Source: Malacoraja senta
Lineage: Eukaryota
Length of the DNA: 64,000 bases
NCBI GenBank assembly: GCA_038087875.1
Contig: CM075989.1
Location: 3,286,001 to 3,350,000 of the forward strand
Reading direction: 5' to 3'
The translations under genes and the position numbers were made by a program. The notes under the pieces were generated by a model. It worked only from the letters and a program-made list of their open reading frames with translations. It ran no database searches and was not told the origin of the DNA. Shown in pieces: positions 1-47,912 of the stretch. The stretch's first letter is position 1, and every line of letters begins with the position of its first letter.

Positions 1-547
1 TTTTTAAACTGTGGCCCCTGGTTCTGGACTCCCCGAACATCGGGAACATGTTTCCTGCCTCTAGCGTGTCCAAACCCTTAATAACCTTATTTGATTCAAT
101 AAGATACCCTCTCATCCTTCTAAATTCCAGAGTATACAAGCCCAGCCGCTCCATTCTCTCAGCATATGACAGTCCCGCCATCCCGGGAATTAACCTTGTG
201 AACCTATACTGCACTCCCTCAATAGCAAGAATGTCCTTCCTCAAATTTGGAGATCAAAACTGCACACAATACTCCAGGTGTGGACTCACTAGGACCCTAT
301 TCAACTGCAGATGGACCTCTTTGCCCTTATACTCAACTCCTCTTGTTATGAAGGCCAACATGCCTTTTGCTTTCCTCACTGCCTGCTGTACCTGCATGCT
401 TACTTTAATTGACTGATGAACAAGGACCCCCAGATCCTCTTGTCCTTCCCCTTTTCCCAACTTGATACCATTTAGATAATAATCTGCCTTCATATTGTTG
501 CTACCAAAGTGGATAACCTCACATTTATCCACATTAAACTTCATCTG
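1..547 (-). mobile_element. CR1-clade LINE (HER1-like) fragment, ORF2 RT C-terminal region
   Basis: ORF 254..544(-) MKFNVDKCEVIHFG...DLGVLVH...LVSPHLEYCVQF is typical CR1 ORF2 C-terminal sequence. Confidence 0.9.
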
Positions 548-565
548 TCATGCATCTTCCCACTC

Positions 566-1015
566 ATGCACACACACACATACACTCAAAATGTACACAT
601 ACTCATGTTTGTACACACACACACAAACAGTGTATGCACACTTGTGAACACACACACACACTTGTGTATGCACACACATACATACACACACGTGTGCATA
701 CACACACATGTACACACATACATACACATGTGTGTGCACACACATGTACACACACACACATGTACACACATACATACACACACACACTTCTGTGCACACA
801 CACAGACACATACACACATTCATACACACACTTGTGTGCACACACATGTACATACACACACGTGTACGCAGACACACACTCATACACATGTACATACACA
901 CACTTGTGCATACACACACACAGGTTGCCACATACATACACACACTTGTGAGCACACACACTTGTACATACACACACTTGTGCTCACACACACACATGTA
1001 CACACATACAAATGC
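566..1015. repeat. Degenerate (CA)n/(CATA)n low-complexity tract
   Basis: Visible CA-rich array; explains the spurious HT/CV-rich ORFs. Confidence 0.95.
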
Positions 1016-1345
1016 ATAAGCACATGACTTTCTCCTGTTCTATTTTCACCTCTGCCCACATTTACCATCCTCACTACAAAGACAGAAAACCCAGAATGAG
1101 AACCTCCCTCACTGACACAAACATGGACCATGCTCTCCACACGACGCATTTCACAATCGTTCTGTTTAATCCTGTTTGAGCTGATGAATATTCAACCTCT
1201 GAGACCGTGATGTTCACGTCCCCACAGTTTAATATTCCTTCCACAGTTTGATTTATGCCAGTTTATTCTCAATCCTTCATCTTTACTCCAAACATATGTT
1301 TTCTTAGGTAGTCGGACTAAACAGGCTGTGTTGTATGTTTTTTAG

Positions 1346-1640
1346 TTTTTAGTTTTAGAGACACAGCACAGACCGGTCCTTCGGCCCACCGAGTCCAGGC
1401 CAACCTGCGATCCCCGCACATCAACACCACCCCACGCACACTAGGGACAGTTTACATTTATACCAAGCCAAACCTGCACGACTTTGGAGTGTGGGAGGAA
1501 ACTGGGGATCTTACAGAAAACCAACCCGGTCATGGGGATGAACGTACAAACTCCATACAGACAGCACCCATAGTCAGGTTCGAACCCGGGTCTCTGGCGC
1601 TGTAAGGCAGCAACTTTACCGCTGCGCCACCGTGCCGCCC
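1346..1640 (-). mobile_element. HE1-like tRNA-derived SINE
   Basis: Reverse complement of GGGCGGCACGGTGGCGCAGCGG head, B-box GGTTCGAACC, conserved core and AAACT-type tail. Confidence 0.9.
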
Positions 1641-1874
1641 TCAGGTCAGATTAAGACTTTGTAATTTGCTTCTGACGTTCATGCCATTAATTCCAACAGA
1701 ATTTCAGGAGTACAGTCCATAACGTTGATGGAACTGGATTCAGTGCTCAGTGGCGCCAGCTAGGACTCTGTAAGGGTTTTATTTAGTTCCTTATTTTCAC
1801 CACCTTTACTATTTGTTTGCGCACGTGGGGTTGATTGCATAGGTCGAAACAGGGTGGACCGTGTGAAGGTTGCA

Positions 1875-2212
1875 ACCTCCCACTGAGTGGTGCAGAGCCT
1901 GGAAAGATGCCAACACCAGCAATGGAGAGGTCATCGCAGACCCCACAGTGAAACCGCTGGGTTTTGACCTCCATCGCAAGCAATGGCTAACCCTGTACAG
2001 AATCCGCACCCTCCATGCAAGAACAGCCCATCCCCTACATCAGTGGGGGATGACAGACAGCCCCCTGCTTGTGACTGCGGACATCCAGACCAAACCATCC
2101 CACACATCGTGAATGACTGCTCACTGAGGCTTTTCCTGGTGGCATCAAAGCCATCCACCCAGTAACTGATGCTGTCCTGGCCTGGATGTCTCCCCTTGAC
2201 CTACAACTTTAG
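1875..2212 (+). mobile_element. 3' remnant of an I-group (Vingi/Ingi-like) non-LTR retrotransposon
   Basis: Frameshifted GFDLHRKQWLTLYRIRT..HQWGMTDSP / ACDCGHPDQTIPHIVNDC, a C-terminal CCHC-type motif; clade assignment tentative. Confidence 0.6.
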
Positions 2213-2362
2213 ACAGTGCAAGACGAAGACCACCGTTACTCCTAAAGTGACTGACAGACTAACCAAAGCCCTGACCATCACTAGACACTAGACCCTTCCC
2301 TAACACTTGGAATATTGCATGCAGTTCTGGTTGCCCCATTACAGAAAGGACCTGCAGGCTAA

Positions 2363-2645
2363 AGGGCCTGTCCCACTGTACGAGCTAATTCAAGAGTTCT
2401 CCCGAGTTTTCCCCTGATTCGAACTTGCAGAATTACGGTAATAGCCGCTCGTAGGTACTCAGGGCTCTCGTGGACAAATCTTCAGAAGCCTTCACGAGCT
2501 TACTGCGTTTCCCGAGTACGTGTCGTTAGCGTTACGAGCCGCTAAGAGACGTCCCGAGCTCCGACGTGCCCTCTACGTACATTCTACGTGCTTACCACGA
2601 GTTTGATTTTTTTTTTAACTCGGGAGAGCTCTTGAATTACCTCGT
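2363..2645. mobile_element. PIF/Harbinger MITE, right end truncated by an HE1 SINE
   Basis: TAA then TIR AGGGCCTGTCCCAC; subterminal inverted match ctcgggagagctcttgaattacctcgt; homologous to 5291-5620. Confidence 0.8.
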
Positions 2646-3010
2646 GGTAGTGTTGCTGCCTTACAGCGCCACAGACTCCGGTTCGATCCTGACCACGGGT
2701 GCTGCCTGTACGGAGTTTGTACGATCTCCCCGTGACAGCATGGGTTTTCCTTGGGTCCTCCGGTTTCATCCCACACTTCAAAGACGTACAGGTTTGTAGG
2801 TTAATTGGTTTGGTATAAATGTAAGATTGTCCCTAGTGCTGCAACCTTCACGTGGTCCACCCTGTTTCGACGTAGGCAATCAACCCGGCATGGCGTGCGT
2901 GCGTCCTTAGTGTGTGTAGGGTAGTGTAGATGTGCAGGAGTCACTGGTCGGTGCGGGCTCGATGGGCCGAAGGGCCTGTTTCCGCACTGTATCTCTAAAC
3001 TAAACTAAAG
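2646..3010 (+). mobile_element. HE1-like SINE (5'-truncated, interrupted at 2839-2903)
   Basis: B-box GGTTCGATCC, core and CTAAA tail. Confidence 0.85.
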
Positions 3011-3277
3011 ACGCAGTATGTCGAGCATCACCAGATACCAGGCAACAGGAATTGGGAGAGAATAATCTGTGTGGGTTTTCTCCGGGTGCTCCGGTTTCCT
3101 CCCACACTCCAAGGACATACAGGTTTGTGGGTTAATAGGCTTTGGTGAAAATTGTAAATTGGGTCAGAGCAGAGTTGGTGGGCCGAATGGCCTGTTTCGA
3201 TGCTGTATATCTAAACTTTTACTGATGCCTGGTTTAGAGGGCATCAGCCCCAGTGAGAGGTTGGATAGAATTGGTGA

Positions 3278-3830
3278 AGGAAAGAACTGCAGATGCTGGT
3301 TTAAATCGAAGGCAGACACAAAATGCTGGAGTAACTCAGCCGGACAGGCAGCATCTCTGGAGAGAAGGAAAGGGTGACGTTTCGGGTCGAGAGCTTTCTT
3401 CAGACTGATGTCAGGGGAGTGGGCGGGACAGAGATAGAATGTAGTCGGAGACAGTAAGACTGGTCGGAGAACTGGGAAGGGGGAGGGGATGGAGAGAGAG
3501 GGAAAGCAAGGGCTATTTGAAGTTGGGGAAGTCAATGTTCATACCGCTGGATGTAAGCTACCCAGGAGAAATATGAGGTGCTGTTCTTCCAATTTGCACT
3601 GGGCAATGGAGGAGGCCCAGGACAGAATGGTCAGATTGGGAATGGGAGGCAGAGTTGAAGTGTTTAGCAACTGGGAGATCAGATAGGCTTAGACGGACTG
3701 AGCGGAGGTGTTCAGCGAAACGATCGCAAAGCCTGCGCTTGGTCTCACCAATATACAGGGGTCCACACCTGGAACAGCGGATACAGTAAATGAGGTTGGA
3801 CGAGGTGCAAGTGAACCTCTGCCTCACCTT
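3278..3830 (-). mobile_element. Penelope-like element remnant: GIY-YIG endonuclease end plus terminal repeat
   Basis: ORF 3558..4016(-) contains RQRFTCTSSNLIYCIRCSRCGPLYIGETKRRLCDRFAEH, contiguous with the abundant gaaggaactgcagatgctgg repeat. Confidence 0.85.
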
Positions 3831-4219
3831 GGATAGAATGGGATTGTTTTCTCTGGAATGCCGGAGGCTGTGGGAGACCAGATGGAAGTATTGAAGAGTA
3901 TGAGAGTCACAGATAAGGTAGACAGCCAGAACCTTTATCCAAGGTGGAAATATGAAATACAGCAGCATAGCTTTTAGGTGAGATGGGCAAAGTTTAAAGA
4001 AAATGTGCAGGGACATGACTATTACAGAGGGTGGTGGGTGCCTGGAACGTGTTAGCTGGGTCGGTTACTATAGTAGCATTTAAGAGACTTTTGCGTAGGC
4101 ACATGGATATGCATGGAATGGAGGGATATGGATTACATGCACACATTCACATACTTGATCTTGGCACCTTGTTTGACATAGACAGTGTGGGCTGACATAG
4201 ACATTATGTTCTAAATATC

Positions 4220-4705
4220 TATACTCCCCTTCCCATTCCCACACTGACCTTTCTGTTCTGGGCAGACTGAGGCCAAACACATATTGGAGGAACAGCACTT
4301 CATATTTCACTTGGGCAGCTTACATCCCAGCGGTCTGAATATTGGTTTCTCTAATTTCAAGTAATCTTTGCCTTCCCTCTCTCTCCTTCCATGCCCCACC
4401 TGAGCTGAGTGATACTGTTTGTATCACTCGCTATCACCTTTTCCACAGCCAACAATGGACCATTGTGGGCTCCACCATCAGTGCTGGTTTTGATTAGTTC
4501 TTTTCACACCTTTCATTCGTTTGTTCTTTGTACCTCTTCATACCCCCAGTTTCCCTCTCCCCTGACTCTCAGTCTGATGAAGGGTCTCGACCCGAAACGT
4601 CACCTAATCCTTTTCTCCTGAGATGCTGCCTGACCCGCTGAGTTACTCCAACATTTTGTGCCAATCTTCGGTGTATACCAGCATCTGCAGTTTCTTCCTA
4701 CACAT
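4220..4705 (+). mobile_element. Penelope-like 3' remnant with hammerhead-like core
   Basis: LEEQHFIFHLGSLHPSGLNI-like end of the GIY-YIG ORF, followed by CTGATGA-agggtctcgaccc-GAAA at 4574-4597. Confidence 0.75.
4570..4605 (+). ncRNA. Putative minimal type I hammerhead ribozyme motif (Penelope-associated; many copies in window)
   Basis: CTGATGA core, stem II GGGTC/GACCC, GAAA, then CG-TC as the cleavage-site end; stem I is weak (2-3 bp). Confidence 0.55.
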
Positions 4706-4981
4706 TTATCAAAACAGAAACTCACCAATTAGATAAAATGTGTAGGAAGGAACTGCAGATGCTGGTTTAAAGCGAAGATAGATACAAAAAACTCAGCGGC
4801 ACAGGCAGCATCTCTGGAGAGAAGGAATGGGTGACGTTTCGGGTCGAGACCCTTCTTCGGACTGAAAGTCCCACAGAGTTGCTCCAGTTTTTTGTGTCTA
4901 TCACCAATTAGATGGATAGATCGGAAAGGTTTCTGGGGTTTATGAGCCAAACATGGGTAAATAGGGCTATCTAGACAGGAC

Positions 4982-5150
4982 AGACAAAAATGCTGGAGAA
5001 ACTCAGCGGGTGAGGCAGCATCTATGGAGCGAAGGAAATAGGCAACGTTTCGGGCCCATTTCCTTCACTCCATAGATGCTGCCTCACCCGCTGACTTTCT
5101 CCAGCACTTTTGTCTATCTTTGATTTTCCAGCATCTGCAGTTCCTTCTTA
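4982..5150. repeat. Penelope-derived foldback (hairpin) repeat
   Basis: agacaaaaatgctggagaaactcagcgggtgaggcagcatctatggag is mirrored by ctccatagatgctgcctcacccgctgactttctccagcacttttgtct. Confidence 0.8.
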
Positions 5151-5290: not shown

Positions 5291-5620
5291 AAACCCTGTC
5301 CCACGGTACGAGTTCATTCCAAGAGCTCTCCCGAGTTTGCCCTGATTCGAACTGAGAGATTTACGGTAATGGCCACTCGTCGGTACTCGGGGCTCTCGTG
5401 GAGATTTTTCAACATGTTGAAATATCTTCACGAGTCTTCCCGAGCTTACCTGCCGTTAGCGAGTCTTCCCGAGTACCTGCCGTTGGCGTTACGAGCCGCT
5501 AAGAGACGTCCCCGAGCTCCGACGTACCCGCTACGTTCATTCTCCGTGCTTACCACGAGTTTGATTTTTTTTTAACTCGGGAGAGCTCTTGGAATGAACT
5601 CGTACTGTGGGACAGGGCTT
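5291..5620. mobile_element. Complete PIF/Harbinger MITE (330 bp)
   Basis: TTA TSD at 5288-5290 and 5621-5623; ~45-bp imperfect TIRs aaaccctgtcccacggtacgagttcattccaagagctctcccgag / ctcgggagagctcttggaatgaactcgtactgtgggacagggctt. Confidence 0.9.
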
Positions 5621-7760: not shown

Positions 7761-8575
7761 CTCTCTGTCTCTGTTATGTCGTCCTTGCCTAGGGGGAAGA
7801 CTCTGGGGGGAATTGATAACATTATGGAGAAAATAAAGTTGGATTGGATCAGTGAAGGATAAGTGTAAATGGGTGGTTGGTGTGGACTTGTCGGGCCTGT
7901 TTCCATGCTCTATCCGTCCCCCACAGAGATGCTAACTCAATACCATATTCCTTGATGTCTTTTGTGTCTCCTTCTTAAATGTTATCATTCATCCATAGTC
8001 AGTTAGTGGGACATCATCTAACTGAAGTTGGCATTGCAGCCTCACAGCACCAGGCCTGGGTTCAACCCTATACACGTGTAGCTCATCAGAGCATGACACA
8101 AAATGGTGGTGTAACTCAGCAAGTCTGGCCTATCCATGTTGTCCACTGATGCTGCCTGACCTGCTGAGTTACTCCAGCCCTTTGTGTCTTTTTTTGTAAA
8201 CCAACATCTGCAGTTCCTACTGCCCAGCACGTCAGAGGACCCTGTGTGTAGTTCACTTTAAGTGTAGTTTAGAGATATGCCACAGAATCAAGCCCTTCGG
8301 CCACCGAGTCCATGCTGGCAATCAGTCACCCATTCACCCCTTCACATTAGTTCCACGTTAGACCACTGTATCACTCCGTACACACTAGGAGCAATTTACA
8401 GAGGACAATTAAAACCCCTGTCTCACGGTGCGAGCTGACCCACGAGGTACCCCGAGCTTAAAACAAATTTAAGTCGTGGTAATCACGTACGATTAACATA
8501 GCGGGAACGTCGGAACTCGTGGACGCAACTTAGCGACTCTTGGCGCTAACGGCAGGTACCCGTGACACTTGTTAA

Positions 8576-10417
8576 CTGTCTCACTGTGCGAGTTGACCCA
8601 CGAGTGACCCCGAGTGAAAGACTCGTGGTTGCGTACGAGACTACAAGTTTATGATCCAGAGTTTAACCGAGTTCCCACGGGTATGTCTACGTTTCCCGTT
8701 TACTTCTCATTTCTGCGATGTTCCAAGTTCGTCTCCCGAGTTACCAAGTTCCTCTCCCGTTAATCTTGAGGCAACAATGTATATCGAAGTATTGAAAAAT
8801 CATCACATGTTCAAAAAATGATGTCATGCCAGCCAAAGAACGTAGAGACTATTGTGTTTGCTGCATGTGTTCTGCACAACCTGATCCGTATCAGAGGTGC
8901 AGCTTCAGGATCAGCAACAGCCATGCAGGACGGTGACTTAGTGGACAGTCAAACAGGGAGAATAACACTAGGTGCGTGGAGGAGTGGTACAAACGACGGG
9001 ACTTTGGTGCCACTGCAGTGTTTTCGAGGTAACATGGGGACCAACAGTGCAAAAGAGCAGAGAGACCATCTCTGCTCCTACTATAATTCAGAATTGGGCA
9101 GTGTGCCATGGCAGGACAGCTTATTTTGAGCTGCTGCCGACCACAGGTACATCACTGCATGAGGAGAGCCCACATACAGAAAAATCCAGTTAATTTCATG
9201 TTTAGTTTAAATCCTGCTGACTTTTCATTGTTTAACTTTAAGTGTGGATTTTATTTTTTATTGTGGTGTAAAAGTAATTTCATTGCATCTGTCTTTCCTT
9301 TAAAACGTGGTTATCATGCATCTGCTTATCTGATTGTAGATCTCAAAACTTGTCATTTAGCGCATTGCATTGTATCTTTTATTGCCTGAATTTAGACTTG
9401 TGCATTTCTCAGCTGAATTAGTATATAGTGGAAATACTTTTATATGTGCTTCATTTGTTGATTTTCATGTATGAGAAGCCCTTTTTCAGACCACTGTGTT
9501 GTTTGCTGTGGTGCTTCACCGTGATATGGGTTTGCAGGAAATTACGCATATTTCTCAATATGCGCAAAAAAGCGTTTTTTATATTGAACAAGAATAAAGA
9601 CTTTGTTTCACATTCAAGATATTTGTTTCACATAAGACTTTGTCTTATGTTCTGATCTACTGAGAGGTGACAATTTTAAACATTTAAAAAGCACAGCATA
9701 TGAGGCAGCTGTCCTTAAATCTCACAAATGATTGTGAGAATCAAGATGTGAATATATTTTGCCTTCCTCTATTTTGTGTTTTATGATGAAAGGAATATTA
9801 CATTCAAGTCATGAGACTTTGTAGTGATATTAAAATGAAGACTTCCAGGCATCAATTTGATCTTGATAGCAAATAACTCTCTTTTATTGTGCAATGAAGT
9901 AAACAAACAGTGAGAATCAAACGGATCAGCAAAAAGCTTTTCAACACAACACAACACAACACAAATTTATATATAAACTTCAAGCAATTTTTTTCTTTTC
10001 AACCCACTCTGTCACCTTATCAATAACTTGCTTAACTTTGTTAAGCAGAATTTGTCTTTAAAAAGTCTAAGTAACTGATATTTCTGTCCCTGATTATTGT
10101 TTCTAAAAAGAGTTCCCACGGTAGACTCACGAGTCACAAAGTTAAACGCACGGGCCACTACGTTCTTACAACGAGTTTAAAATGTTTCAATTTTAACCTC
10201 AAGGGTACATTTTACTCGTGGAAAAGTACAAACATGTTTGAACTTTTGCAAGAGTTAACAAGTTTCACGTGTACCTGCCGTTAGCGCCAAGAGTCGCTAA
10301 GTTGCGTCCACGAGTTCCGACGTTCCCGCTACGTTAATTGTACATGATTACCACGAGTTAAATTTGTTTTAAACTCGGGGTCAATCGTGGGTCAACTCGC
10401 ACAGTGAGACAGCCCTT
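8576..10417 (+). mobile_element. Internally deleted PIF/Harbinger transposon (inner, nested)
   Basis: TAA at 8573-8575 and 10418-10420; ends ctgtctcactgtgcgagttgacccacga / tcgtgggtcaactcgcacagtgagacagccctt; contains a transposase C-terminus. Confidence 0.85.
8818..9129 (+). pseudogene. Harbinger DDE transposase C-terminal fragment (HARBI1-family-like)
   Basis: QPKNVETIVFAACVLHNLIR...AKEQRDHLCSYYNSELGSVPWQ; ACVLHN and GSVPWQ are typical of Harbinger transposase C-termini; catalytic core missing. Confidence 0.85.
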
Positions 10418-11165
10418 TAACTCTTGGAAAAATTCAAACATGTTTAAACATTTCCACGAGTAAAATGTACTCTTGAGGTTACAATTTGAAACATTTACAC
10501 ACGTTGTAAGAACGCAGTGGCCCGTGCGTTTACCTTAGTGACTCGTGAGTCTACCGTGGGAACTCTTTAACTCAGCGGGCAGGCAGCATCTCTGGAGAGA
10601 AGGAATGGGTGATGGGATGACATTTCCAAATTGGGAGGGGGGGTGAGAGGAGGGAGGGGGGGTGGAGGAGAGAGGGTTGAGAGTGGAGGGAGAGGAGGGG
10701 GAGACAGATGAGGGTGTCTTCATTCACTAGTGGCGGGTGCCGGTCACTGAAACAGGCAGGTGAGATTTCACATCCACATTCTGTGTGTGTGTGTCTCTCT
10801 CCCTCCCTGCCTCTCACACAGGCTGAGAGACTCTGCCTCTGTGAGTGTACTTCTCTTTCTCCCCCTCCCACACACAGTAAGACCGAGATAAGTCCATCTG
10901 TGTAAGTCCATCTGTGTCTCCCACATACACATTAAACTCTGCTTTGTGTGTATATACACGTCTCCCCCCATTTCTCTTTCTCCCCCCCCACCTCTCTCTT
11001 TCCCCCCCCCCCCCACCTCTCTCTTTCTTCCCCCACACACAATAAGACCGATGTATTCTGCTTAGTCTCTCTTCCCTCCCACACACACAGATAGACCGAG
11101 GTCCTGTGCGCTCTTTCTCTCTCCCCCACAGTCACGCCGAAGTACACCACACTGCCTTTGTGTGT

Positions 11166-11206
<41 letters not shown>

Positions 11207-11433
11207 TCATACAGTCAGAGATCCACACTGTCTCTGTGTCTCTCTCTCCCCTACACACACACACACACAGACTGAGGTACACACTGCCCGTTGTGTGTAT
11301 GTGTCTGCCTCTGTCTCTCTCTCCCACACACACAGTTAAAGGTACTCCACGCTGTCTGTGTGTGTGTGTCTCTCTCTCTCTCTCTGTCCCACCCCCACAC
11401 CCACACACAGTCAGTCAGTCAGAGGAACTCCAC

Positions 11434-11436
<3 letters not shown>

Positions 11437-11517
<81 letters not shown>
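11437..11517. repeat. (TG)n microsatellite, about 40 units
   Basis: Perfect dinucleotide run. Confidence 0.95.
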
Positions 11518-11518
<1 letters not shown>

Positions 11519-12661
11519 CTCTGTCTCTCCCTATCACAGTCAGAGTGAGGTACTCCCCCCGCAGTCTCTCTGCGGGCTCTCCCCAGGCAGGGCGCATCTG
11601 CCTCAGGCTGCCCAGGCAGTCAGACACGACTCCGGTGGCGGGCTCCATGCACAGCTCCTGCCGGCCGGCTGGGAGCGGCGACGGAGGACGGGGGAAGTTG
11701 GCCACCAGCGGGGCAGTCTCGGCTCTCAACGCAGTCCGAGTCTCGCTGGATCCTTGTAATCCTCTGCCTCTGTCAAATGGGTGAGTTTAACCTGACCCCC
11801 CCCCCACAACCTCCCTCCACCTCAACTCATGCCTGGGCACCAAAGCAGCTCAGGAGGCGAACCCTGAGCTCCGTCTCCCAACAATCTGATGTGTGCATCC
11901 ATGCACATTCAAAGATTTAATCTCCAGTCTCCCCGCAGTGTGTAGACCTGGCAGTAAATTCAATTAAAATATAGCAAACCTCCGCCTGCTGGTCTTCTAA
12001 CTACGTGATGTGTGTTTCAAACAAATCATCAGTATAACTGCTCTGGCACTGGACGGTGCGCATTTTCCCTTTGTAGGTCACATCAATAGATGCGGCCGCG
12101 CTGAATTCTATCTTTAACTCAAAGCCGCAGGATGGAGATGTTGCTTATTAAAACAGACCTTCATTGAAGGGTGGTTCAAGAGTAACTCGGGAAAGGAACT
12201 TGTTAACTCGGGAGACCAACTTGGAACATCGCAGAAATGACAGTTAACGGCAAACTGGAGTCATACCCGTGGGAACTCGGTTAAACTCTTGATCATACAC
12301 TTGGAATCTCGTGCACAACCACGAGTCTTTCGCTCGGGATACCTCGCGGGGTCAACTCGCACCGTGAGACAGGGCTTTAACCTGGAAACCCACACGTCTT
12401 TAGGATATTGGAGGAAACCGGAGCACCCAGAGGAAACCCACATGGTCACATGGAGAACATGCAAACTCCCCATGGTCATGCGGAACCCGAGGTCGGGATT
12501 GAACCCGGGTCTCTGGCACTGTGAGCCCTCTGTGCCACCTGTGGGGTGATAGTATTTCTGTGGCCTATGACCAGAATTACGGGCGCTGTGGACAAAGGCA
12601 AACAGCTTGCTCGCCCGCAATTAATTTCATTATTTCTTCTCATTTTAACGTTTTAATTAAC

Positions 12662-12975
12662 ATTAACAAAGTTTGCAGATGACACCAAGATTACTGCGGT
12701 TGGAGAGTGTGAGGAAAGCTGTCAAAGAATACACGGGATATGGATCAGCTACAGAAATGGACGGAGAAATGGCAGATGGTGTTTAATCCAAGCTAGCACG
12801 GGCTTACTCAAGCCCCTTGAGTTAGTAAGGGCTCTCCCTTACTCAATGTAAGTGAGGCTCCTTATATTTGACCTCCTAATGGTCACCTCCCAATTTAATC
12901 ATTGGGAGGTCAAATGTAAGTGGAAAATATGCAATTAACGACATGATCCTTAACACCGTTGATTCAGAGAGTGAT
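12662..12975 (+). mobile_element. CR1 RT fragment
   Basis: INKVCR/KFADDTK region followed by W..KWQMVFN. Confidence 0.75.
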
Positions 12976-29402: not shown

Positions 29403-31758
29403 ATCACCAGTACACAAATTAAAGACAGAATTCGATCCAAAGACACAACAACAACAAAATCAGAAACACAATGTGAAGAGAGAGCAGCGGCAGCTAAACC
29501 GCGCCAGCGTCCACTCTCCCTTCCGACCGCCATCTTGGACACAGACTAAAATAGACTCTACATACAAAAATCATCCCCCCACAATGGTTACCACTCTGGG
29601 GGAAGGCACAATGTAGTTCCAGAAAAAACAATCCAGGTTTGTCTATTATCTATCTCAGGTCCCTTGACTATTATTCATTCCTCAATCACTAAAATGGACT
29701 ACACAATCAATCCAAGTGTGGGTAAAGAGAAAATACCAGAGTGCAGAATATAGTTTCTCAGCATTGTAGCTAAACATTATAGTTCCAGAGAAAAAGTTAA
29801 TTGGCCACAATGTCGAATGTCAAGTGAGTTATGTCACTAAACAGAGGACATTGCAGGTTGGGTCCCCTCTTCAGACAGATCGAGCATCCCGACCCAAAAC
29901 ATTATCTGTCCTCGTCCCAGTACAGATGCTGCTTGACCCACTGAGTTCCTCCAGCACTTTGTTTTTTACTCAGGATTCCAGCATCGGCAGAATCAAAGAA
30001 TTGCACATGCTGGTTGATACCAAAGGTAGACACAAAGTGATGGAGTAAGTAAGCGGGTCAAGCGATATCTCTGGATAAAACCCAGTATCTCTGGATTATG
30101 GGTCAGGACCCTTCGTCAGTCTGATGAATGGTCCCAACCTGAAACATCACCCATCCTTTTTCTCCAGAGATGCTACCGGACATGTTGAGTTACTCCAGCA
30201 TCTGCAGTCTCTTGTTTCTTGTGTATGAAGGAACTGCAGATACTGGTTTAAACCAAAGATCGACACAAAAAGCTGGAGTAACTCAGCAGGACAGGCAGCA
30301 TCTCTGGAGAGAAGGAATTCCGTCTGTCCCGCTGAGTTTTGTGTCTGTCTCTTGTCTCTGTCCAATGTCACTTCATGGGTACATACCAAATAAATTTGAC
30401 ACCAGGCCATGAAAGGAGTTATCTGGAGAAGTGCCAGATGGAGGAGTAATTAAGGAGAGCTCCAAAGCACCTTGAGAGGCAGGGGAGCGCAGGTGGGAAG
30501 AAGAGCGGAACTCGCTATCAAAACATGGAGGGGACGGGGGACACAATTTTTTGGCGGCTGCGCGCGCATGCGCACACTCACACACAAGCGCGCGAGGTTT
30601 CGGAGGCTTAATTCAGCGCTAAATGCAGCTCAACGCTGCCTGTCTCACCGGGTTAACCTACAGCCCTGGCTGGACTGATGGGTCACCAGCGCTGCTTCTC
30701 CGCGCTGGCCATATTTCCCGCAAGTCCAGGCAGGACAGGCAGAGTTGAGCTGGGTTTAGCGCTGTTTCTCTGCGCTGGCTGTGGGCCTGGGGGCACAGCT
30801 CCCGTCTGACTCCCGACCTCTCTGGCCACCCGTCGGGGGTGGGGGGGGCACTCGGGTGGGGACAGGACGGCGCTGGAGACCTGACCGGGATCGATCCTGC
30901 CTGCGGATGAGGCGCAAGTCTGTGCCACGTCTCCCTCCTCCAATCGCCGCGCTCTATCCTCAGTCTCACCCCCCCCCCCCTCCACTCCTCCCTCCTCCAA
31001 TCACCGCGCCCTCGATCAGCAGTCCCAACCCCACTGTCTCGCGGAAAGCGGAGATTTTAAAATACGGATCACAAAAACTTGGGGGGATGTCCCCCACCAC
31101 TCAAAACATGGGGGGGACGTGTAGCCTCTGGCTCCCCCCCATCCCCCCCCGGGTTTTCCGCCCCTGGGTGGGAAACATGAGACCTGAGCAGCTGAAGCCT
31201 CAATGACTGTTCACAAGGGAGGTCAGGATAGCGGAGACAGGACGCGGTGCCAGAGACGGCTGTAGAGTGCAACTAAAGCACCGTGACCGCATTTCAAAAC
31301 AAAGGACAGGAACGTTAACATTCGAACCAGAAGCAAACACAAGAATTTGTGTAGGAAGGAACTGCAGATGCTGGTTTAAATCGAAGATAGACACAAAATG
31401 CTGGAGTAACTCAGCGGGACAGGCAGCAGCATCTCTGGAGAGAAGGAATGGGTGAAGATTCAGGTCGAGACGCTTCTTCAGACCAGAAGCAAGCACGAGA
31501 ATGTTGGATAAGAAGAATTGTGCAAATTAGGCTCATGTTTGCGAAGTTTATGAAGGCTGCAGGGGATGGTGGCTGAGAGAGTGTTGGTGTAGTGGAGGAT
31601 AACAGCAACAAGGGTACATGGGTCAGTGTCCAACCTCACCCAGATTCAGTATTAACTCAACATCAAGTCTGACGCAGGGTCTCGACCCGAAACGTCGCCC
31701 ATTCCTTCTCTCCAGAGATGCTGCCTGTCCCGCTGAGTTACTCTAGCATTTTGTGTCT
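29403..31758 (+). repeat. Direct duplication of host DNA, copy 1 (2356 bp)
   Basis: Colinear with and highly similar to 36097-38441 from atcacca.tacacaaattaaagac to gcattttgtgtct. Confidence 0.95.
30500..31166. mobile_element. Non-autonomous hAT element, copy 1
   Basis: 8-bp TSD GGTGGGAA (30492-99, 31167-74); right TIR ttttccgcccctg, left TIR degenerate gaagagcggaa. Confidence 0.75.
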
Positions 31759-31814
31759 TTGATGCCGATATCAGCGAACGCTGGGCCACGTTTGAAATTG
31801 ATTACCAGCACTAC

Positions 31815-32870
31815 ATGAACATTGTACACCGAAATGAACCAGATGCTATTAAGGCCTCTCTCTTGCTCAACCTTGCGGGACCTGGTGCCCTTCGTCGATC
31901 CAGAACATTCCGTTATGCTCCGGCTATCCGTGATGCCCATGACCAGGTAATTACACCGGTGGAGTCTCCCACTGACCCTAATGTTTTGCTGCGTAAACTG
32001 GCTCAGATCTGTGACCTGCCCTCAAATCACATTTTGAACAGGGCAAGGTATTTCTCTCGTCGTCAACTTCCCGGGGAACGAGTGGACTCATATATTTCTT
32101 CTTTAATGTATCTAGCCCAACGTTGTCGATTTCAGGAAATGCCAGCGGATCAGTTGACTGATCAGTTAACGAGGGATATTTTAGTGAATGGTATCACCGA
32201 TGAAAAGCTCAGATCAGAGCTCTTGAAACGGCCAGAGTTATCGCTAGATGACGCGGCGCATGCATGCAGAACGGCTGAACTTGTTGATCCTATAGACATT
32301 CCACATGAAAGCAATACCATCAATCTGACGGGCCTCACTAGGCAGCGGACATACACAGATAACAGCCGATCTAAGATCCAAGCTAGCCAGGCAGCTCTCA
32401 GCGTTCCTTCACAGAAATGTCCTAACTGCGGCTATATACACAGCAGGCAATCCACCTGCCCCGCCCTCGGGAAGGTTTGTAATTACTGCAAAAAGCTAAA
32501 TCACTTTGCCTCAGCCTGTCGGGCTGCTATCAGGGCCCGAGGAAAGAATGCGCCCAGTCCCAAGTCTAATCTCAATTTTTTGCAACGAGACAGCAACATA
32601 CTGACTCCCCATTTCCAGCTCGAAGCCGCCCCCGAATGTATTTCATTTGACTCGCAAGTCGATCCTACTGTTTACATGTTACAGCATGCTGCTGCCAAGA
32701 ACTCTGATCCTACAGTGACGATATCTGTAAACAATGTTGCTTTTGCGCGAAACTGGATACGGGGGCGAGAGTCAATACAATGTCAATCAACCTTTTTAAC
32801 AGGATCAGGGCTAACGAGCCACTTGTCAAGGACGCGTCCACTTTACATGCTTTTGGTGGGGAGGTGCTAG
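31815..32870 (+). CDS. gag: Gypsy Gag (frame opens upstream at the junction, VFDADISERW..; gag-like homology ends ~32743)
   Basis: RQLPGERVDSYISSL..RDILVNGITDEKLRSELL capsid-like region; CPNCGYIH..C and CNYCKKLNHFASAC zinc knuckles. Confidence 0.88.
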   Translation: MNIVHRNEPDAIKASLLLNLAGPGALRRSRTFRYAPAIRDAHDQVITPVESPTDPNVLLRKLAQICDLPSNHILNRARYFSRRQLPGERVDSYISSLMYLAQRCRFQEMPADQLTDQLTRDILVNGITDEKLRSELLKRPELSLDDAAHACRTAELVDPIDIPHESNTINLTGLTRQRTYTDNSRSKIQASQAALSVPSQKCPNCGYIHSRQSTCPALGKVCNYCKKLNHFASACRAAIRARGKNAPSPKSNLNFLQRDSNILTPHFQLEAAPECISFDSQVDPTVYMLQHAAAKNSDPTVTISVNNVAFARNWIRGRESIQCQSTFLTGSGLTSHLSRTRPLYMLLVGRC

Positions 32871-35863
32871 TTCCTCTGGGCAAAGCCAACTTGAAATGTG
32901 TACTGAAGAAAACAACTAGGGAATTGACTTTCCATGTGCTGGACTTTAATTCGGTTACCCTGCTTGGCAATCGTGCCTGTCAGGAACTAGGGCTGATTTC
33001 CTTTGATAAAACTGTCCACAAACTGCAAGTTTCCTTTGATCCACTGAATGACTTCCCTGGTCTTTTCGACAACAACCTAGGCAAGTTGCCTGTGTCCTAC
33101 AAGATTACTATCGACCCCGATGTGACACCCGTTGTCCGAAACCCACACAGATTGTCATTTGCCATGACTGACAGGGTTCACTCTATGCTGAAGGACATGG
33201 TCTCCAAAGGCGTAATTGAAGCAGTCAGTGACCCCACCGACTGGGTCTCAACCATGATTGCCACAGTCAAGAAGGGAAAGGATGAAATCCGCCTGTGCAT
33301 TAATCCAAAAGACCTGAACACTGCCATTAAGCGCCCGCACCATCCCATGAAGACAGTAGAGGATGTTGCAGCAAAGATCGGAACGGCCACCCTATTTTCC
33401 GTCCTAGATGCAAAGAACTCATTCTGGCAGATACCGCTGGAAAAGAGGTCATCAAACCTCACCACATTTGCCACCCCATTTGGGAGATATAAGTTTCTGA
33501 GAATGCCATTCGGGATCAACTCTGCCAGCGAAGTCTTCCAAAGAACTATGGAACAATTATTCGAGGGTCTGCCTTGTGCCATTATTGTCGATGATATTCT
33601 TGTCTATGGCAAGGACGCGGTGGAACATGACCACAATCTCAGGCTCATCTTGGAGCGTGCTGTCAAGATCAACCTCAAGCTCAATCCTGACAAGTGCAAG
33701 TTCAGGGTTCCAGTGGTCTCCTATGTCGGCCACATCTTCACCCCTGACGGCCTCAAACCGGATCCGAAGAAGACTTCTGCCATCACAGAAATGCCTGCAC
33801 CCACTAACGTGAAAGGCCTGCAACGTTTCCTGGGCATGGTAAACTATCTCGGAAAGTTCATACCCAACCTCAGCGAATTAAGCTCCACATTGCGGCAGCT
33901 GACAAAAAAGGACACTGCGTGGTCATGGTTCCAGCAACATCAGGATGCCTTCGATGTTCTGAAATCAAAACTGACCAGTGCACCGACCCTGACTTTTTTC
34001 GACCTGAAACGTCCGGTGGTGATCACCTGCGATGCCTCGAAATTCGGGCTCGGCGCAGCCTGCCTGCAACCGTCTGATGATGGTACCCTACTACCCGTCG
34101 CGTATGCCTCTCGCACCATGACCGACACGGAGCAGCACTACGCGCAAATCGAAAAGGAACTGCTGGCGGTCGTCTTTGCCTGCTCCAAATTCCACGACTT
34201 CGTCTTTGGCAACACGTTCATGGTTGAGACGGACCACCAGCCACTGGTGACAATCTTGAACAAGCCTATCCATGCCGCCCCAGCTCGTTTGCAGCGCATG
34301 ATGATGCAGCTGCAGCGGTACGACTTCTCTATTACCTACACAAAGGGCAAGGACATGCATGTTGCTGACACACTCTCTCGTGCCCCTCGAACATCTTGCG
34401 AACAACACCCACACGAACAGGAGAATTTCACTGTTCTCGGTGTCGGTCTAATCTCCAGCAAGCAGCTGCGCACCCTGGCCGCGCACACTGCCAAGGATGA
34501 TACGCTTCAAGCCCTCTCGTCCATCATCAAAACAGGCTGGCCAGGCAAACATTCCAACACGCCCACAGAGGTGCAGCCGTACTTCTTGGTCCGCGATGAA
34601 CTGGTGGTTCAGGATGGTGTGGTCGTCAAGGGCCACAAGGTAGTTGTACCTGCATCGCTACAAGACGAATACTTCAAAGAGGTACACAGCGGTCACCCAG
34701 GAGCCGACTCCACACTGGCACGCGCCCGGGATCTGTTCTACTGGCCCGGAATGGCCACGTACATCCGGGACCGCGTAGCCTCCTGCCCCACTTGCAACAA
34801 TCTTGCACCTCATCAGCAGCGGCAACCCCTTCTGCAACAACCTCCACCAGCACTGTCATGGTTGTCGCTGGCTGTGGACATTTTCGAATGGTGCGGTAAG
34901 CACTACCTCGTTCTGGTCGACTCGTACTCCAACTGGTTTGAACTTGACCAACTTACCTCCCTCACGTCGGTGATGGTCATCAGGAAGCTGAAAAGACATT
35001 TCTCAGACCATGGGATTCCTGTTATTCTGAGAACCGACAATGGTCCACAGTTCACCAGCCACTCGTTCAAGCTTTTCGCCGACCGATGGAACTTCCAGCA
35101 CGTCACAAGCAGTCCCGAGTATCCACAGAGTAATGGACTCGCTGAACGCGCTGTCAGGAGCGCCAAGCACTTGCTGGAGGGAGCGCGCATTTCAAAGTCT
35201 GACGTCTATCTCGATCTACTGAATCTCAGAAACATTGCAAGAGACGGAATCTTGGGGTCACCAGCACAGCGGCTGCTGTCGAGGGTGACGAGGTCTCCGG
35301 TCCCCATCGCACAACAGCAGCTGGTTCCTCGGGTGTTGAAGCCCGCCACTATCCAAGAGAAGCACGACACCCAGAAACGGTCATACGACAGCTCCAGCAG
35401 ACCACTCCAGCCTCTACTGCCGGGCCAGGTCGTCCGTCTACGAACTCCAACTGGTCATTCTCGTCTGGGCGTTGTTGTGCGCCCGACTGATGAGCCGCGA
35501 TCGTACCTTGTGGACTGTGAGGGAGCGGTTTACCGGAGAAGTCGTCAACACCTGCTTGCTGTGAAGGAGCCCCGACCGCCGCCTGCCGATCCCTATGCTC
35601 CGCCGCTCCAGTTCCAGCCGCCTTCCGCAATGTCTCCCGCCCGTCCCCGCATGCCTGGCACTCCCCCACGTCCATCTGTCTCCACTAACCACGGGGTTTC
35701 ACCCACCGCATGTTTCCCCCCTCGGTCACCACAATCCTCTCCCGTGCGGTTTTCACCTTCAGCCTCTCCGCCTCACCCTTCAGTTGAGGGAGGGGATGGT
35801 TGGGTCCGCATGCGTTCGGGCCGTGTTAGTGGACCACCAGACAGGCATGGCGAGTATGTTTAA
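32780..35863 (+). CDS. pol: Gypsy Pol: protease, reverse transcriptase, RNase H, integrase
   Basis: KLDTGA protease motif just upstream in the same frame (32750-32767); RMPFG and IVDDILV RT; DASKFGLGA and ETDHQPL RNase H; H..H..C..C, TDNGPQF and NGLAER integrase; 1027 aa uninterrupted. Confidence 0.95.
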   Translation: MSINLFNRIRANEPLVKDASTLHAFGGEVLVPLGKANLKCVLKKTTRELTFHVLDFNSVTLLGNRACQELGLISFDKTVHKLQVSFDPLNDFPGLFDNNLGKLPVSYKITIDPDVTPVVRNPHRLSFAMTDRVHSMLKDMVSKGVIEAVSDPTDWVSTMIATVKKGKDEIRLCINPKDLNTAIKRPHHPMKTVEDVAAKIGTATLFSVLDAKNSFWQIPLEKRSSNLTTFATPFGRYKFLRMPFGINSASEVFQRTMEQLFEGLPCAIIVDDILVYGKDAVEHDHNLRLILERAVKINLKLNPDKCKFRVPVVSYVGHIFTPDGLKPDPKKTSAITEMPAPTNVKGLQRFLGMVNYLGKFIPNLSELSSTLRQLTKKDTAWSWFQQHQDAFDVLKSKLTSAPTLTFFDLKRPVVITCDASKFGLGAACLQPSDDGTLLPVAYASRTMTDTEQHYAQIEKELLAVVFACSKFHDFVFGNTFMVETDHQPLVTILNKPIHAAPARLQRMMMQLQRYDFSITYTKGKDMHVADTLSRAPRTSCEQHPHEQENFTVLGVGLISSKQLRTLAAHTAKDDTLQALSSIIKTGWPGKHSNTPTEVQPYFLVRDELVVQDGVVVKGHKVVVPASLQDEYFKEVHSGHPGADSTLARARDLFYWPGMATYIRDRVASCPTCNNLAPHQQRQPLLQQPPPALSWLSLAVDIFEWCGKHYLVLVDSYSNWFELDQLTSLTSVMVIRKLKRHFSDHGIPVILRTDNGPQFTSHSFKLFADRWNFQHVTSSPEYPQSNGLAERAVRSAKHLLEGARISKSDVYLDLLNLRNIARDGILGSPAQRLLSRVTRSPVPIAQQQLVPRVLKPATIQEKHDTQKRSYDSSSRPLQPLLPGQVVRLRTPTGHSRLGVVVRPTDEPRSYLVDCEGAVYRRSRQHLLAVKEPRPPPADPYAPPLQFQPPSAMSPARPRMPGTPPRPSVSTNHGVSPTACFPPRSPQSSPVRFSPSASPPHPSVEGGDGWVRMRSGRVSGPPDRHGEYV

Positions 35864-38939: not shown

Positions 38940-39180
38940 GTTCTATTTATCCCACTCTCTCAACCACTCCCTGCACACTAGGGGCAATTTACAGAGGGGC
39001 AATTAACCTGCAAACCCGCACATCTTTGGGATGTGGGAGGAAACCGGAGCACCCGGAGGAAACCCACGTGGTCAGAGGGGGAAGATGCAAACTCCACACG
39101 GACAGCACCCGAGGTCAGGATCGAACCCGGTACTCTGGCGCAGTGAGGCAGTAACTCTACCAGCTGCCCTGCTGTGCCAC
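38940..39180 (-). mobile_element. HE1-like SINE
   Basis: Reverse complement of head and core. Confidence 0.8.
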
Positions 39181-44400: not shown

Positions 44401-46107
44401 CTGTGTGGCAAAATAGTGGAAGATGTATCACAGTCCTGCTCTTGATGGTACCCAATGAAAATGTAGGACAGATCAGTGGAAATTCTGTACCAGGGTTTTA
44501 CAAGAGCTGAAAACTGGGTGGCACTGAGGCACAGCAGATAGAGCCTGACAGCACCAGAGACCCGGTTCGATCCTGACCTCAGGTGCTCTCTGTGTGGAGT
44601 TTGCACGTTCTCTCTGTGACTGCATAGGTTTCCTCCAGGTGCTCCAGTTTCCTCCCACATCCCCCAGACGTGCAGGTTTGTGGGATAATCAGCCTCTGTA
44701 AATTGCCTCTGGCGTGCAGGGAGTGGATGAGAAAGTAGAATAACATGGGACTAGTGCGAATGGGTGATCGATGGCCGGCAGTGACTCTGTGGGCTGAAGG
44801 GCCTACCACCATGCTGTAGCTTATCATCAATCAATCAGAATAAAAACCCTTTGACAGTTCTTGAGCTAATTACACCAGCTCTTTGATCTAAACGGTGCTC
44901 GGCATAAGTGGAGCCTGTGAATGTTTTATCCATTATGCAAGAGCGCTGCAGGCACTGAACAAACACATCGTGACAGAGAAAGTTTGATAAGTATTTAAGA
45001 GAACAGCTTAATATCAAGTGTGGAAGCTATCAGCCTTTGAGTGTAAAGGGCTGTGTTTCGAGGGGTTCTCAGGTTTACATATTGCAGGCAGTTCAAAGCT
45101 GCACAGCCTGGGCCTAACCCTAATCCTACATGGACATCGTGTGCTTGGCCACCCCTCCTGGAGATCTGGTGGGGCACAGTGGTCCCCACATCAACTACAA
45201 TCCACCGTCTGACAATGAAATATGAATCAAGATGTCAAGATGTCACATGTTCACGAGCCAGAGGCAATTTAAATTTAATTTGAAAAGGAATTAACATCCA
45301 AACTGTTTTTACCTCAGAACCACTTTAGCTGAACCTTGTGCATCAAAGCACCTGCTCTCTTTACATCGACAAAGGCAAAGTAAACAGTGCTGCTGTATTT
45401 CTAGCCATTACACCTTGTTTAGGATTCACTGCTTTAGTGAGAAACACCCTTGCTTCCTGAACGGTCATCATTTATCTATCACCAATGGTGGAGACAGCTT
45501 TAGTCATAGCCAGCTAATCATGAGAGGAATAGATCGGGTAGATGCACAGAGTCTCTTGCCCAGAGTACGTGAATCGAGGACCAGAGGATATAGGTTTAAG
45601 GTGAAGGGGAAAGGATTTAATAGGAATCTGAGGGGTAACTTTTGCACGCAAATGATGGTGGGTGTATGGAACAAGCTGCCAGAGGAGGTAGTTGAGGCTG
45701 GGACTATCCCATCGTTTAAGAAACAATTAGCAGGTACATGGATAGGTTTGGAGGGATATGGACCAAATGCACGTAGGTGGGACTAGTGTAGCTGGGACAT
45801 GTTGGGCCGAAGGGCCTGTTTCTACACTGCATCACTCTAACCATCTCAACATCTGGTCCATTTAGCATGAAGGGTGTTGAATTGATTGAAGTGAGTTGAA
45901 ATGAAAGTTACAGCATGGAAACGAGTCTTCAGCCCACTGACTCCACGCCGATCAGCGCTCACTGTTCACACTAGTTCTATCTTATCGCACTTTCACAAAC
46001 TCAATGCTAGCATTTATTTCAAGAGGGCTTGTACACAAAAACAGGGATGTAACGCTGAGTCTCTATAAGGCACTGGTCAGGCCGCATTTGGAATATGGTG
46101 AGCAATT

Positions 46108-47912
46108 TTGTCCAAAAACGCACAAAATTCCAAGGTCCTTTTTAACACCATCACCTCCATCATCTGTCCTGCCCCCAGCACCAGCCTAACTGGGTCCCCT
46201 GCTAAGTGCGAGGAATTTACCACATTTTTCACCAGCAAGGTAAAGAACATAAGAACGAATATTTCCCCTCCCACCCGTGACCTGGCTGTCTCATTGGTCT
46301 GCTCTTCAAAATTAGACAATTTCCAACCCGTTACTCTACCCTCCCTTGTAAAACTGATCACCACCATGAAACCTACTACCTGCCCCCTCGACACTGTCCC
46401 CTCTGCCCTCCTAAAGGACGTCATTACAACAGCTGGTCCCAGCATCCTCGCCATCTTCAACAGCTCTCTGGCCACTGGCACTGTATCTACCTGCTTCAAG
46501 CATGCGGTGGTCCAACCACTCCTGAAAACACCTAACCTCGACCCCACCTTGCCAAGCAACTACAGACCCATTTCTAAACTGCCTTTCCTCTCAAAAGCCC
46601 TTGAAAAGGTAATTTTAAGTCAACTTATACCTTACCTTACCTTCAACTTATACCTTACCTTACCTTACCTTCACCTATCTTGGAAACTTTCCAATCAGGT
46701 TTCAGGGCTCACCATAGCACAGAGTCTGCCTTGTTGAAGGTACACAATGACCTACTGCTCACCGTTGACTCCGGCGACTGTGCAATTCTGCTCCTTCTTG
46801 ACCTCAGTGCAGCATTTGATACTGTTGACCACACCATCCTAATTGACCGTCTCCGGTACGGGGTTGGTATTGATGGCACTGCCCTGAGCTGGTTCATCTC
46901 CTACCTCAAAGGTAGGAGTTTCTCGACTAACATAGGCAACTCTTTCTCCTCCCCAGCTAATCTGTGCTGTGGGGTTCCACAAGGTTCCATCCTTGGCCCC
47001 ATTCTCTTCTCCCTGTATATGCTCCCCTTGGGCCAAGTCATTGAAAGGCACGGCATTTCCTTCCATTGCTACGCAGACGATACACAACTCTATCTCTCTC
47101 TGAAGCCCAAAAACCAATCAAATCTGTTTAACCTTACCCACTGCCTCGAGGATATAAAGTGTTGGATGGCCCAGAACTTCCTCCAACTAAACGAGAGTAA
47201 GTCTGAGGTCATCCTTCTCGGCCCCTCGGACTCAATCAAAATGATAGCAGGCAGCCTTGGAAGCCTTACCCCACTACTCAAACCTTACGTCAAAAACCTT
47301 GGCGTGATATTTGACTCAGCACTGAAATTTGACAAACAAGTCAATGCCGTGGTAAAAGCTAGCTTCTTTCAGCTTCGGACGATAGCTAAAATAAAACAAT
47401 TTCTCCAGTTTGATGACCTCGAAAAGATCATCCACACATTCATCTCCTCCCGCCTAGATTACTGCAACTCCCTTTACACTGGCATCAGCCAATCTTCCCT
47501 GTCCCGCCTGCAACTGGTCCAAAACGCCGCAGCGAGACTCGAAAATGGGACCCGAAAAAGGGACAACATCACCCCGATCCTGGCCTCTCTCCACTGGCTC
47601 CCTGTGCGGTTCCATATAAACTTCAAGATCCTCCTCCATGTCTACAAAGCCCTCAATGGGCTTGCCCCCACCTACATAAAAAGTCTTCTCACCCACCACT
47701 CCACCTCCAGGCCCCTCAGATCGGCCGACTTGGGGTTGTTGAATATCCCACGGTCTAGGCATAAGCTCAGGGGCGACCGCGCCTTTGCGGTTGCAGCCCC
47801 TAGACTGTGGAACAGCATCCCCTTTCCCATCAGAACTGCCCCCTCCATCGACTCTTTTAAGTCAAGACTAAAGACTTATCTATACTCCCAAGCCTTTCCT
47901 GACGTCCTCTGA
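46108..47912 (+). pseudogene. L2 ORF2 reverse transcriptase (one frameshift near 46630-46680)
   Basis: NYRPISKLPFLSKALEK; QSGFRAHHSTESAL; LDLSAAFDTVDH; GVPQGSILGP; YADDTQLY; DYCNSL; LHWLPV. Confidence 0.9.

Follow-up and report, generated by a model that had tools for sequence, protein, structure and literature searches.

A Harbinger transposon in Malacoraja senta that probably carries the first exon of a host gene

The 64,000 nt stretch of Malacoraja senta DNA analyzed here (assembly GCA_038087875.1, contig CM075989.1, positions 3,286,001 to 3,350,000 of the forward strand; hereafter the window, whose positions serve as coordinates) harbors at 8413-12377 a non-autonomous PIF/Harbinger transposon into which a second copy of the same family has inserted. 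The outer element is probably a Pack-Harbinger, which carries the first exon of a host gene and was amplified in the lineage of an organism represented in public sequencing runs (organism A) as well as in that of the window. Below, E denotes the GC-rich block at 11520-11780 and D the segment at about 11795-12175, while segments A, B and C are the end and subterminal segments of the family.

Part of 11520-12200 is contained in 20 of 24 listed public runs (12 studies). Four of the 24 were aligned to 11520-12780 at a likeness of at least 85%: X1 (organism A), X9 (organism C), X16 (organism G) and X22 (organism H), the last being raw DNA reads of which ~6% of the run was examined. The best word share was 0.56, corresponding to ~98% identity. 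As summed contig depth is no copy number according to the alignment tool, more weight was given to the ratios of depth between segments. The median summed depth over E, D, B and the short interspersed nuclear element (SINE) around the transposon was 143,000, 153,000, 372,000 and 1.7 million in organism A, 159, 8,000, 46,900 and 1.0 million in organism C, and 52, 115, 1,340 and 36,000 in organism G; the flank at 12552-12637 had a depth of 0 in organism A, and the unique flank one of 20.1 in organism C. The E/B ratio was 0.38 in organism A, 0.04 in organism G and 0.003 in organism C, where E is ~300 times rarer than the end. Organism H, a distant relative to which we attach little weight, gave nine reads, all on the SINE and none on the element. 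A 220 nt contig of X9 with 12 differences and a depth of 20.1 matches 12488-12706, apparently the orthologous site.

Because the interior is deep in organism A and contigs there run across both joins, that of E and D with record 3 (11731-11822) and that of D and B with 35-40 contigs (at 12171 and 12175), we regard E-D-B as a unit that was amplified in this organism. Contigs over 11728 in organism A have a mean depth of 5,544 and together reach 121,970. If a single copy has a depth of 55-70, which is a guess, the number of copies is roughly at least 80-100 and at most 2,000, a range that hinges on this value (a single-copy depth of 24 would give 230-5,100). D-B is repeated in organisms A, C and G and is therefore the older unit, so that D is not unique foreign DNA. 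A preliminary description of the window had counted 11795-12175 as unique and put the foreign DNA at ~1.6 kb; with this part assigned to the family, to whose end it is joined in all three organisms, the foreign part shrinks to ~1.2 kb. The same description had expected several copies of the cargo within the same element ends and one donor locus lacking these ends. As far as the runs bear on them, both expectations are favored: in organism A the interior recurs along with the end of the element, while E has a low copy number in organism C and looks like a spliced exon in the run of organism G.

It is very improbable that the capture is real while the copies in organism A are mostly the outcome of tandem or segmental amplification, or the run not comparable, with no mobile family behind them. 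Such a reading would accommodate the limits of summed depth, the position of the other copies' flanks outside the data, and the kinship of X1 to the window species, which is unclear as X1 lacks depth on a unique flank present in organism C. However, the window copy has its own TAA pair within a SINE, the depth in organism A does not extend into the unique flank of the window copy, and variants occur there at several frequencies along E, D and B.

The only contig of X16 over E is 6,460 nt long and has a depth of 52.1. It matches 11523-11727 with 15 mismatched and 19 gap letters, leaves out three letters and matches 50 more up to 11780, which is the last base before GTGAGT in the window; 110 letters of the contig lie upstream of the match and ~6,070 continue past its end. 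The motif G-GTRAGT occurs at 14 of 128,000 places on both strands and GTRAG at 116 of 64,000, and the chance of a break at such a donor lies between about 1 in 500 and 1 in 9,000 for each base. Because the match ends exactly at a consensus donor, the contig is best read as a spliced transcript with E as its first exon, and it may be the mRNA of the donor gene. We favor RNA as the source of X16 because its contigs total 177 million letters, against ~2,000 million for the other two runs with contigs, which we judge too little for a depth of 52 in single-copy DNA. Insertions and deletions of the contig relative to the window cluster at 11603-11638, as expected of an untranslated region (UTR). The letters at 11578, 11660 and 11688 are common to organisms G and C and absent from the abundant copies of organism A.

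At 11728 and 11730 the entire depth in organism A (22 contigs) differs from the window and creates a start codon at 11729-11731, 52 nt upstream of the donor, where the window copy has none. The 17 codons that follow contain a hydrophobic 8-mer, and of 20,000 stretches drawn at random from the window 0.06% have one as strong, although several frames were examined and the true chance is higher. Short leader exons ending in phase 1 are typical of secreted and membrane proteins. Another frame that stays open up to the donor begins with a further ATG (11647); of the three listed substitutions of organism G downstream of this ATG, two are silent in the frame that it opens. The leader frame is therefore tentative. 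An ESM Atlas search for the donor returned a best score of 0.83, at most a lead, and no family, and no Pfam family scored above the cut-off in eight frames. The TIR motif had no match in metagenome and viral contigs, nor the exon motif in metagenome and prokaryote genome contigs, which are collections not meant for fish DNA. Among the listed runs containing part of 11520-12200, organism A had no RNA run.

The boundaries of the element were defined by self-comparison of the window, which yielded three long inverted pairs: 8418-8577/10253-10412, 8576-8769/12176-12372 and 10107-10258/10417-10568. These resolve as two copies of one family with the order B ... C-A in opposite orientation (Table 1). 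The outer copy on the minus strand measures 2,120 bp without its guest (B 12377-12176, interior, C 10568-10421, A 8572-8413). The nested copy consists of B, ~50 unassigned bases, the last 100 transposase codons, an AT-rich stretch, C and A. The terminal inverted repeats (TIRs) of the outer copy are ~45 bp long, start with A, and agree in 26 of the first 28 letters and at 89% over 47. The ends of the two copies are 87-92% identical, whereas their interiors share nothing (local score 27 versus 20-28 in 30 shuffles). A likeness between the nested copy at 8766-8820 and the start of D was rejected, as 9.9% of 2,000 shuffles scored equally.

With the outer element removed, the SINE agrees with the copy at 38965 in 90 of 101 aligned letters, and 8 of 27 blast matches (two self-matches) span its junction by at least 20 nt on each side. 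We take this SINE to be HE1, a label from the preliminary description rather than from a repeat library. A 4 bp TTAA duplication as in Kolobok or piggyBac was also considered and rejected, because a 3 bp TWA duplication yields symmetric TIRs and the element at 5291 is flanked by TTA without TTAA. Thus, the two TIRs, the TAA target-site duplication (TSD) at 8410-8412 and 12378-12380 and the SINE halves rejoining across the element all stand as first described, and so does the presence of transposase sequence in the inner copy where the outer one holds other DNA. The single 4 kb element of that description keeps its anatomy but not its size, which comprises the 2,120 bp outer copy and a later insertion of 1.84 kb with its own TAA pair.

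Table 1. Positions of the outer element, the nested copy and the cargo in the window.
Feature	Position	Strand	Remark
SINE left part, interrupted	8334-8412	.	rejoins with 12381 onward
Outer TSD TAA, left	8410-8412	.	flanks outer element
Outer element end A, TIR 8413-8457	8413-8572	-	142 of 154 letters as in nested copy's A end
Nested-copy TSD TAA, left	8573-8575	.	
Nested Harbinger deletion derivative, 1,842 bp, orientation opposite to outer	8576-10417	+	left TIR lacks first five letters
Harbinger (DDE_Tnp_4) transposase C-terminal remnant, inside nested copy	8821-9129	+	60% to P0003, P0153
Nested-copy TSD TAA, right	10418-10420	.	
Outer element subterminal segment C	10421-10568	-	139 of 153 columns as in nested 10107-10258 (compared from 10417)
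Abundant-repeat scrap, cut mid-unit at left junction of cargo	10568-10628	+	tail 10613-10628 by eye
G-rich tract, degenerate 60-65 bp CT/CA units, (TC)18, (TG)41	10629-11519	+	
GC-rich exon block E; 5′ start lies further left	11520-11780	+	match of 6,460 nt X16 contig
Leader-like coding stretch, 52 nt (17 codons and one base)	11729-11780	+	
Splice donor GTGAGT, facing B end	11781-11786	+	
Segment D, older family-associated sequence	11795-12175	-	repeated, joined to B end in organisms A, C, G
Outer element end B, TIR 12332-12377	12176-12377	-	172 of 198 columns as in nested copy's B end
Outer TSD TAA, right	12378-12380	.	
SINE right part, interrupted	12381-12525	.	

The transposase remnant of the nested copy (8821-9126) is 60% identical to P0003 (E-value 4e-33) and likewise to P0153, which is LOC116977459 of Amblyraja radiata; its closest named relative is XP_032883785.1 of the thorny skate, in the cluster of the best match. 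The remnant alone had no Pfam match, and DDE_Tnp_4 was found in all ten relatives scanned, which were picked for rank or length from 150 listed. All three window elements with both ends preserved carry a TWA duplication, TAA for the outer and nested copies and TTA for a miniature inverted-repeat transposable element (MITE) at 5291-5620. This MITE is a complete 330 bp member of a related Harbinger family with TTA on both sides and ~76% likeness to the A end; a second copy of its family lies at 2380-2624. No Myb/SANT second open reading frame (ORF) was found in the scanned frames, nor is one expected in deletion derivatives.

According to excerpts of PMC4482050, PIF/Harbinger is a group of the PHIS transposons with a TWA duplication and TIRs that are mostly <60 bp and start with A or G. 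On sequence features, the outer and nested copies share this profile except for the Myb/SANT gene: the TWA duplication, a TIR of <60 bp starting with A and, through the nested relative, a DDE transposase are alike, whereas the outer element is non-autonomous and no Myb/SANT gene was found here. This 2015 survey, as excerpted, reported PHIS transposons as absent from sharks. The remnant at 8821-9129 and the thorny skate protein place Harbingers in another lineage of cartilaginous fish.

The cargo starts in the middle of a unit of a common genomic repeat. The scrap at 10568-10612 has 38 matches within the window and is up to 98% identical to other copies over 45 nt. It is presumably Penelope, a name that comes from the preliminary description and not from a library. 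Copies of the scrap surround a minus-strand ORF at 3558-4064 with a weak GIY-YIG match (E-value 0.0045, under the Pfam cut-off); the repeat scrap of the preliminary description is thus confirmed, while its name leans on this sub-threshold match. The scrap is followed by G-rich, CT/CA and TG tracts (10629-11519) and by E with 66% GC and a CpG observed/expected ratio of 0.6-0.7, so the tracts and the exon-like block reported earlier are both present. Self-comparison revealed no other copy of E in the repeat-rich window. Searches of the cargo with 151 Harbinger proteins (tblastn) gave nothing under an E-value of 0.1, its six translated frames contained no Pfam family above the cut-off, and the six Rfam matches on 8200-12700 all lay far below the gathering scores. 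By eye, neither a TSD nor a poly-A tail was seen around the cargo. The microhomology at its left junction is one letter and uninformative. We infer the origin and copy number of 10629-11519, which would represent upstream DNA of the donor gene and the start of its 5′UTR.

Besides the limits of summed depth, the guessed single-copy depth and the unclear kinship of X1, several observations weigh against the capture of a host exon. X16 is labeled ‘RNA? (probably DNA)’, and if it is DNA, the contig would be a repeat of ~100 copies. If it is RNA, the transcript of organism G could also have started in a copy of the element and been joined by splicing to a host gene. The start codon is seen in the copies of organism A, and the letters of X16 at 11728-11730 gave no reading. 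The donor gene has no name: the leader frame had no protein match at an E-value of 10 (617 and 1 candidates), a weak blank because a match of 17 residues would by our estimate probably fall below the threshold, and the frame from ATG-11647 had none at the same value (54 candidates). In the aligned runs, the donor locus of E without TIRs was not seen as DNA. The repetition in organism A is known from depth and join contigs, without the flanks or TSDs of other copies. In organism C, 11766 is linked to 11802 in one contig (depth 47.1), which means that E adjoins D there; a small number of early Pack copies or the progenitor locus would account for this, but so would a native interior. Finally, low interior and high end depth is also expected of a few full copies together with many deletion derivatives.

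Some of these observations would be explained if E and the tracts were the native interior of the family, such as the first exon of an element gene with its promoter. The outer and nested copies would then be ordinary deletion derivatives that retained different parts, one of which was amplified in organism A. D is indeed family sequence in organisms A, C and G, the contig of organism C links E to it, the depth gradient B > D > E in that organism is what a minority of long copies among many short ones would give, the nested copy too is a deletion derivative, and the donor gene is nameless. Nevertheless, we consider this explanation rather unlikely. A hydrophobic leader is ill-suited to a nuclear transposase or Myb protein; the cargo begins with the cut scrap of an unrelated repeat and its six translated frames contain no Pfam family above the cut-off; and two D-bearing contigs of organism G (records 10 and 11) run leftwards into non-E sequence. 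In addition, the contig of organism G does not cover D at 11907-12035, and its 6 kb past the donor exceed the mean length of autonomous PIF/Harbinger elements (~4.1 kb, from the excerpts of PMC4482050). The preliminary description had itself named a normal family interior as the finding that would overturn its proposal; this holds for 11795-12175, and for the remainder it is the rival just described.

Alternatively, the cargo might be the 5′ end of another transposable element, such as a long interspersed nuclear element (LINE) or other retroelement with a GC-rich leader, that was inserted or copied into the Harbinger, and the contig of organism G would then be that element. E does lie at one end of the 6.46 kb contig, which would have ~100 copies if the run is DNA, and a repeat scrap borders the cargo. 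This possibility appears quite improbable, given that the match stops exactly at the consensus donor, that no duplication or poly-A was visible around the cargo and that E has no other copy even in a repeat-rich window.

We therefore return to a Pack-Harbinger as the favored interpretation. The earlier proposal of host DNA captured by a Harbinger is partly supported by the repeated interior and the exon-like E, with its cargo corrected to ~1.2 kb from 1.6 kb. In a non-autonomous PIF/Harbinger with ends A-C and D-B, a host gene would have contributed ~1.2 kb of its 5′ end in place of the interior, comprising upstream DNA with an old repeat scrap (10568-11519, which presumably came with the exon), a GC-rich first exon, a start codon, a leader of 17 codons and a splice donor. 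The capture may have occurred by template switching during repair or replication, the model in the excerpts of PMC8277862, or through two neighboring elements mobilized as one, a model in those of PMC8903248; the junctions do not discriminate between them. The TIRs were kept intact, and therefore a transposase acting in trans could have multiplied the element to roughly 100-2,000 copies. The window copy would have inserted into a SINE at a TAA. Its start codon would then have been lost, and a related deletion derivative would later have entered near its A end; with both changes it is probably inert. The exon and the transposase have opposite orientations, the exon being directed to the B end with its donor 0.6 kb from that end, so any transcript would be predicted to leave the element and splice to flanking DNA.

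Animal Pack-TIRs, which likewise hold host DNA between the ends of one TIR element, have been surveyed previously (Tan et al. 2021, PMC8277862; this and the papers below are cited from excerpts). That study lists 370 of them, including 21 rows of PIF-Harbinger from frogs and alligator in Supplementary Data 1. Almost all published vertebrate cases are repair products present as a single copy; among 100 genomes just four multicopy cases came to light (three in frogs and one in alligator), and the example described has three copies. The median cargo is 224 bp, and multicopy cases tend to contain GC-rich DNA, one with a piece of 5′UTR. Here, by contrast, a cargo of ~1.2 kb is present at an estimated 100-2,000 copies and the parent locus is not in hand, whereas the published definition includes a unique parental copy in the same genome that is at least 90% identical and has no adjacent TIR elements. 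The definition also places 100-5,000 bp of non-transposon DNA between both ends. In the element described here, ~1.2 kb is enclosed by A-C and D-B in the order and orientation of the family; D is transposon sequence, and E and the rest of the cargo match neither the nested interior nor the 151 proteins, nor any Pfam or Rfam family above the cut-off. Elephant shark is the only shark in the table of that study, with 0 Pack-TIRs, and the word ‘skate’ is absent from the supplements searched. We found no Pack-type Harbinger of skates or rays in the literature searched, which lies mostly outside subscription journals, Repbase and Dfam, and the family may have been recorded before as an ordinary non-autonomous Harbinger.

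In maize and rice, Pack-PIF elements of the same superfamily provide a parallel in structure (PMC8903248). Zm-Pack-PIF cluster 18 comprises 52 elements of a non-Pack group and 72 of a group that gained a piece of a gene in its interior and was amplified, and the newest DNA of Pack-PIFs is the most internal. The plant cargo is 163 bp from a named gene, while the vertebrate cargo is longer and would include a whole 5′ exon with its donor. The closest working model is HelibatN3 of vespertilionid bats, in which the promoter, six codons and splice donor of NUBPL were captured, spread by a Helitron and spliced onto downstream acceptors (PMC4778049). For the present element, one contig of organism G appears to use the donor and the copies of organism A have a start codon; splicing from element copies onto host exons would be a prediction. 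HelibatN3 is a rolling-circle Helitron for which exon trapping was shown experimentally, whereas here a cut-and-paste Harbinger carries a predicted leader-like exon.

Elsewhere in the window, the long ORFs and repeats resemble mobile elements or their remains, and no host gene was evident by eye. Two overlapping ORFs of 377 and 1,051 amino acids at 31737-35863 presumably represent gag and pol of a Gypsy-type retrotransposon; repeats at ~29900-31750 recur 6.7 kb further on. The ORFs of 211 and 435 amino acids at 46102-47912 are, we assume, the reverse transcriptase region of an L2-type LINE.

Capture of host genes by TIR elements occurs commonly in plants, whereas reports of it at high copy number in vertebrates are few. 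If the interior is native, the locus is an ordinary nest of two Harbinger deletion derivatives. If a host first exon was amplified a hundredfold or more, it would represent plant-style transduplication in vertebrates with active TIR elements, and its many copies would be a natural resource for measuring the frequency with which a relocated promoter, leader and splice donor comes into use. That a vertebrate cut-and-paste transposon has spread a portable cassette of promoter, signal-peptide exon and phase-1 donor to hundreds of sites is unlikely on the present data. If true, such a cassette would correspond, among TIR elements, to the exon trap of HelibatN3 in bats: when located in an intron or upstream of a gene, a copy would splice onto host exons and add a new start and secretion signal.

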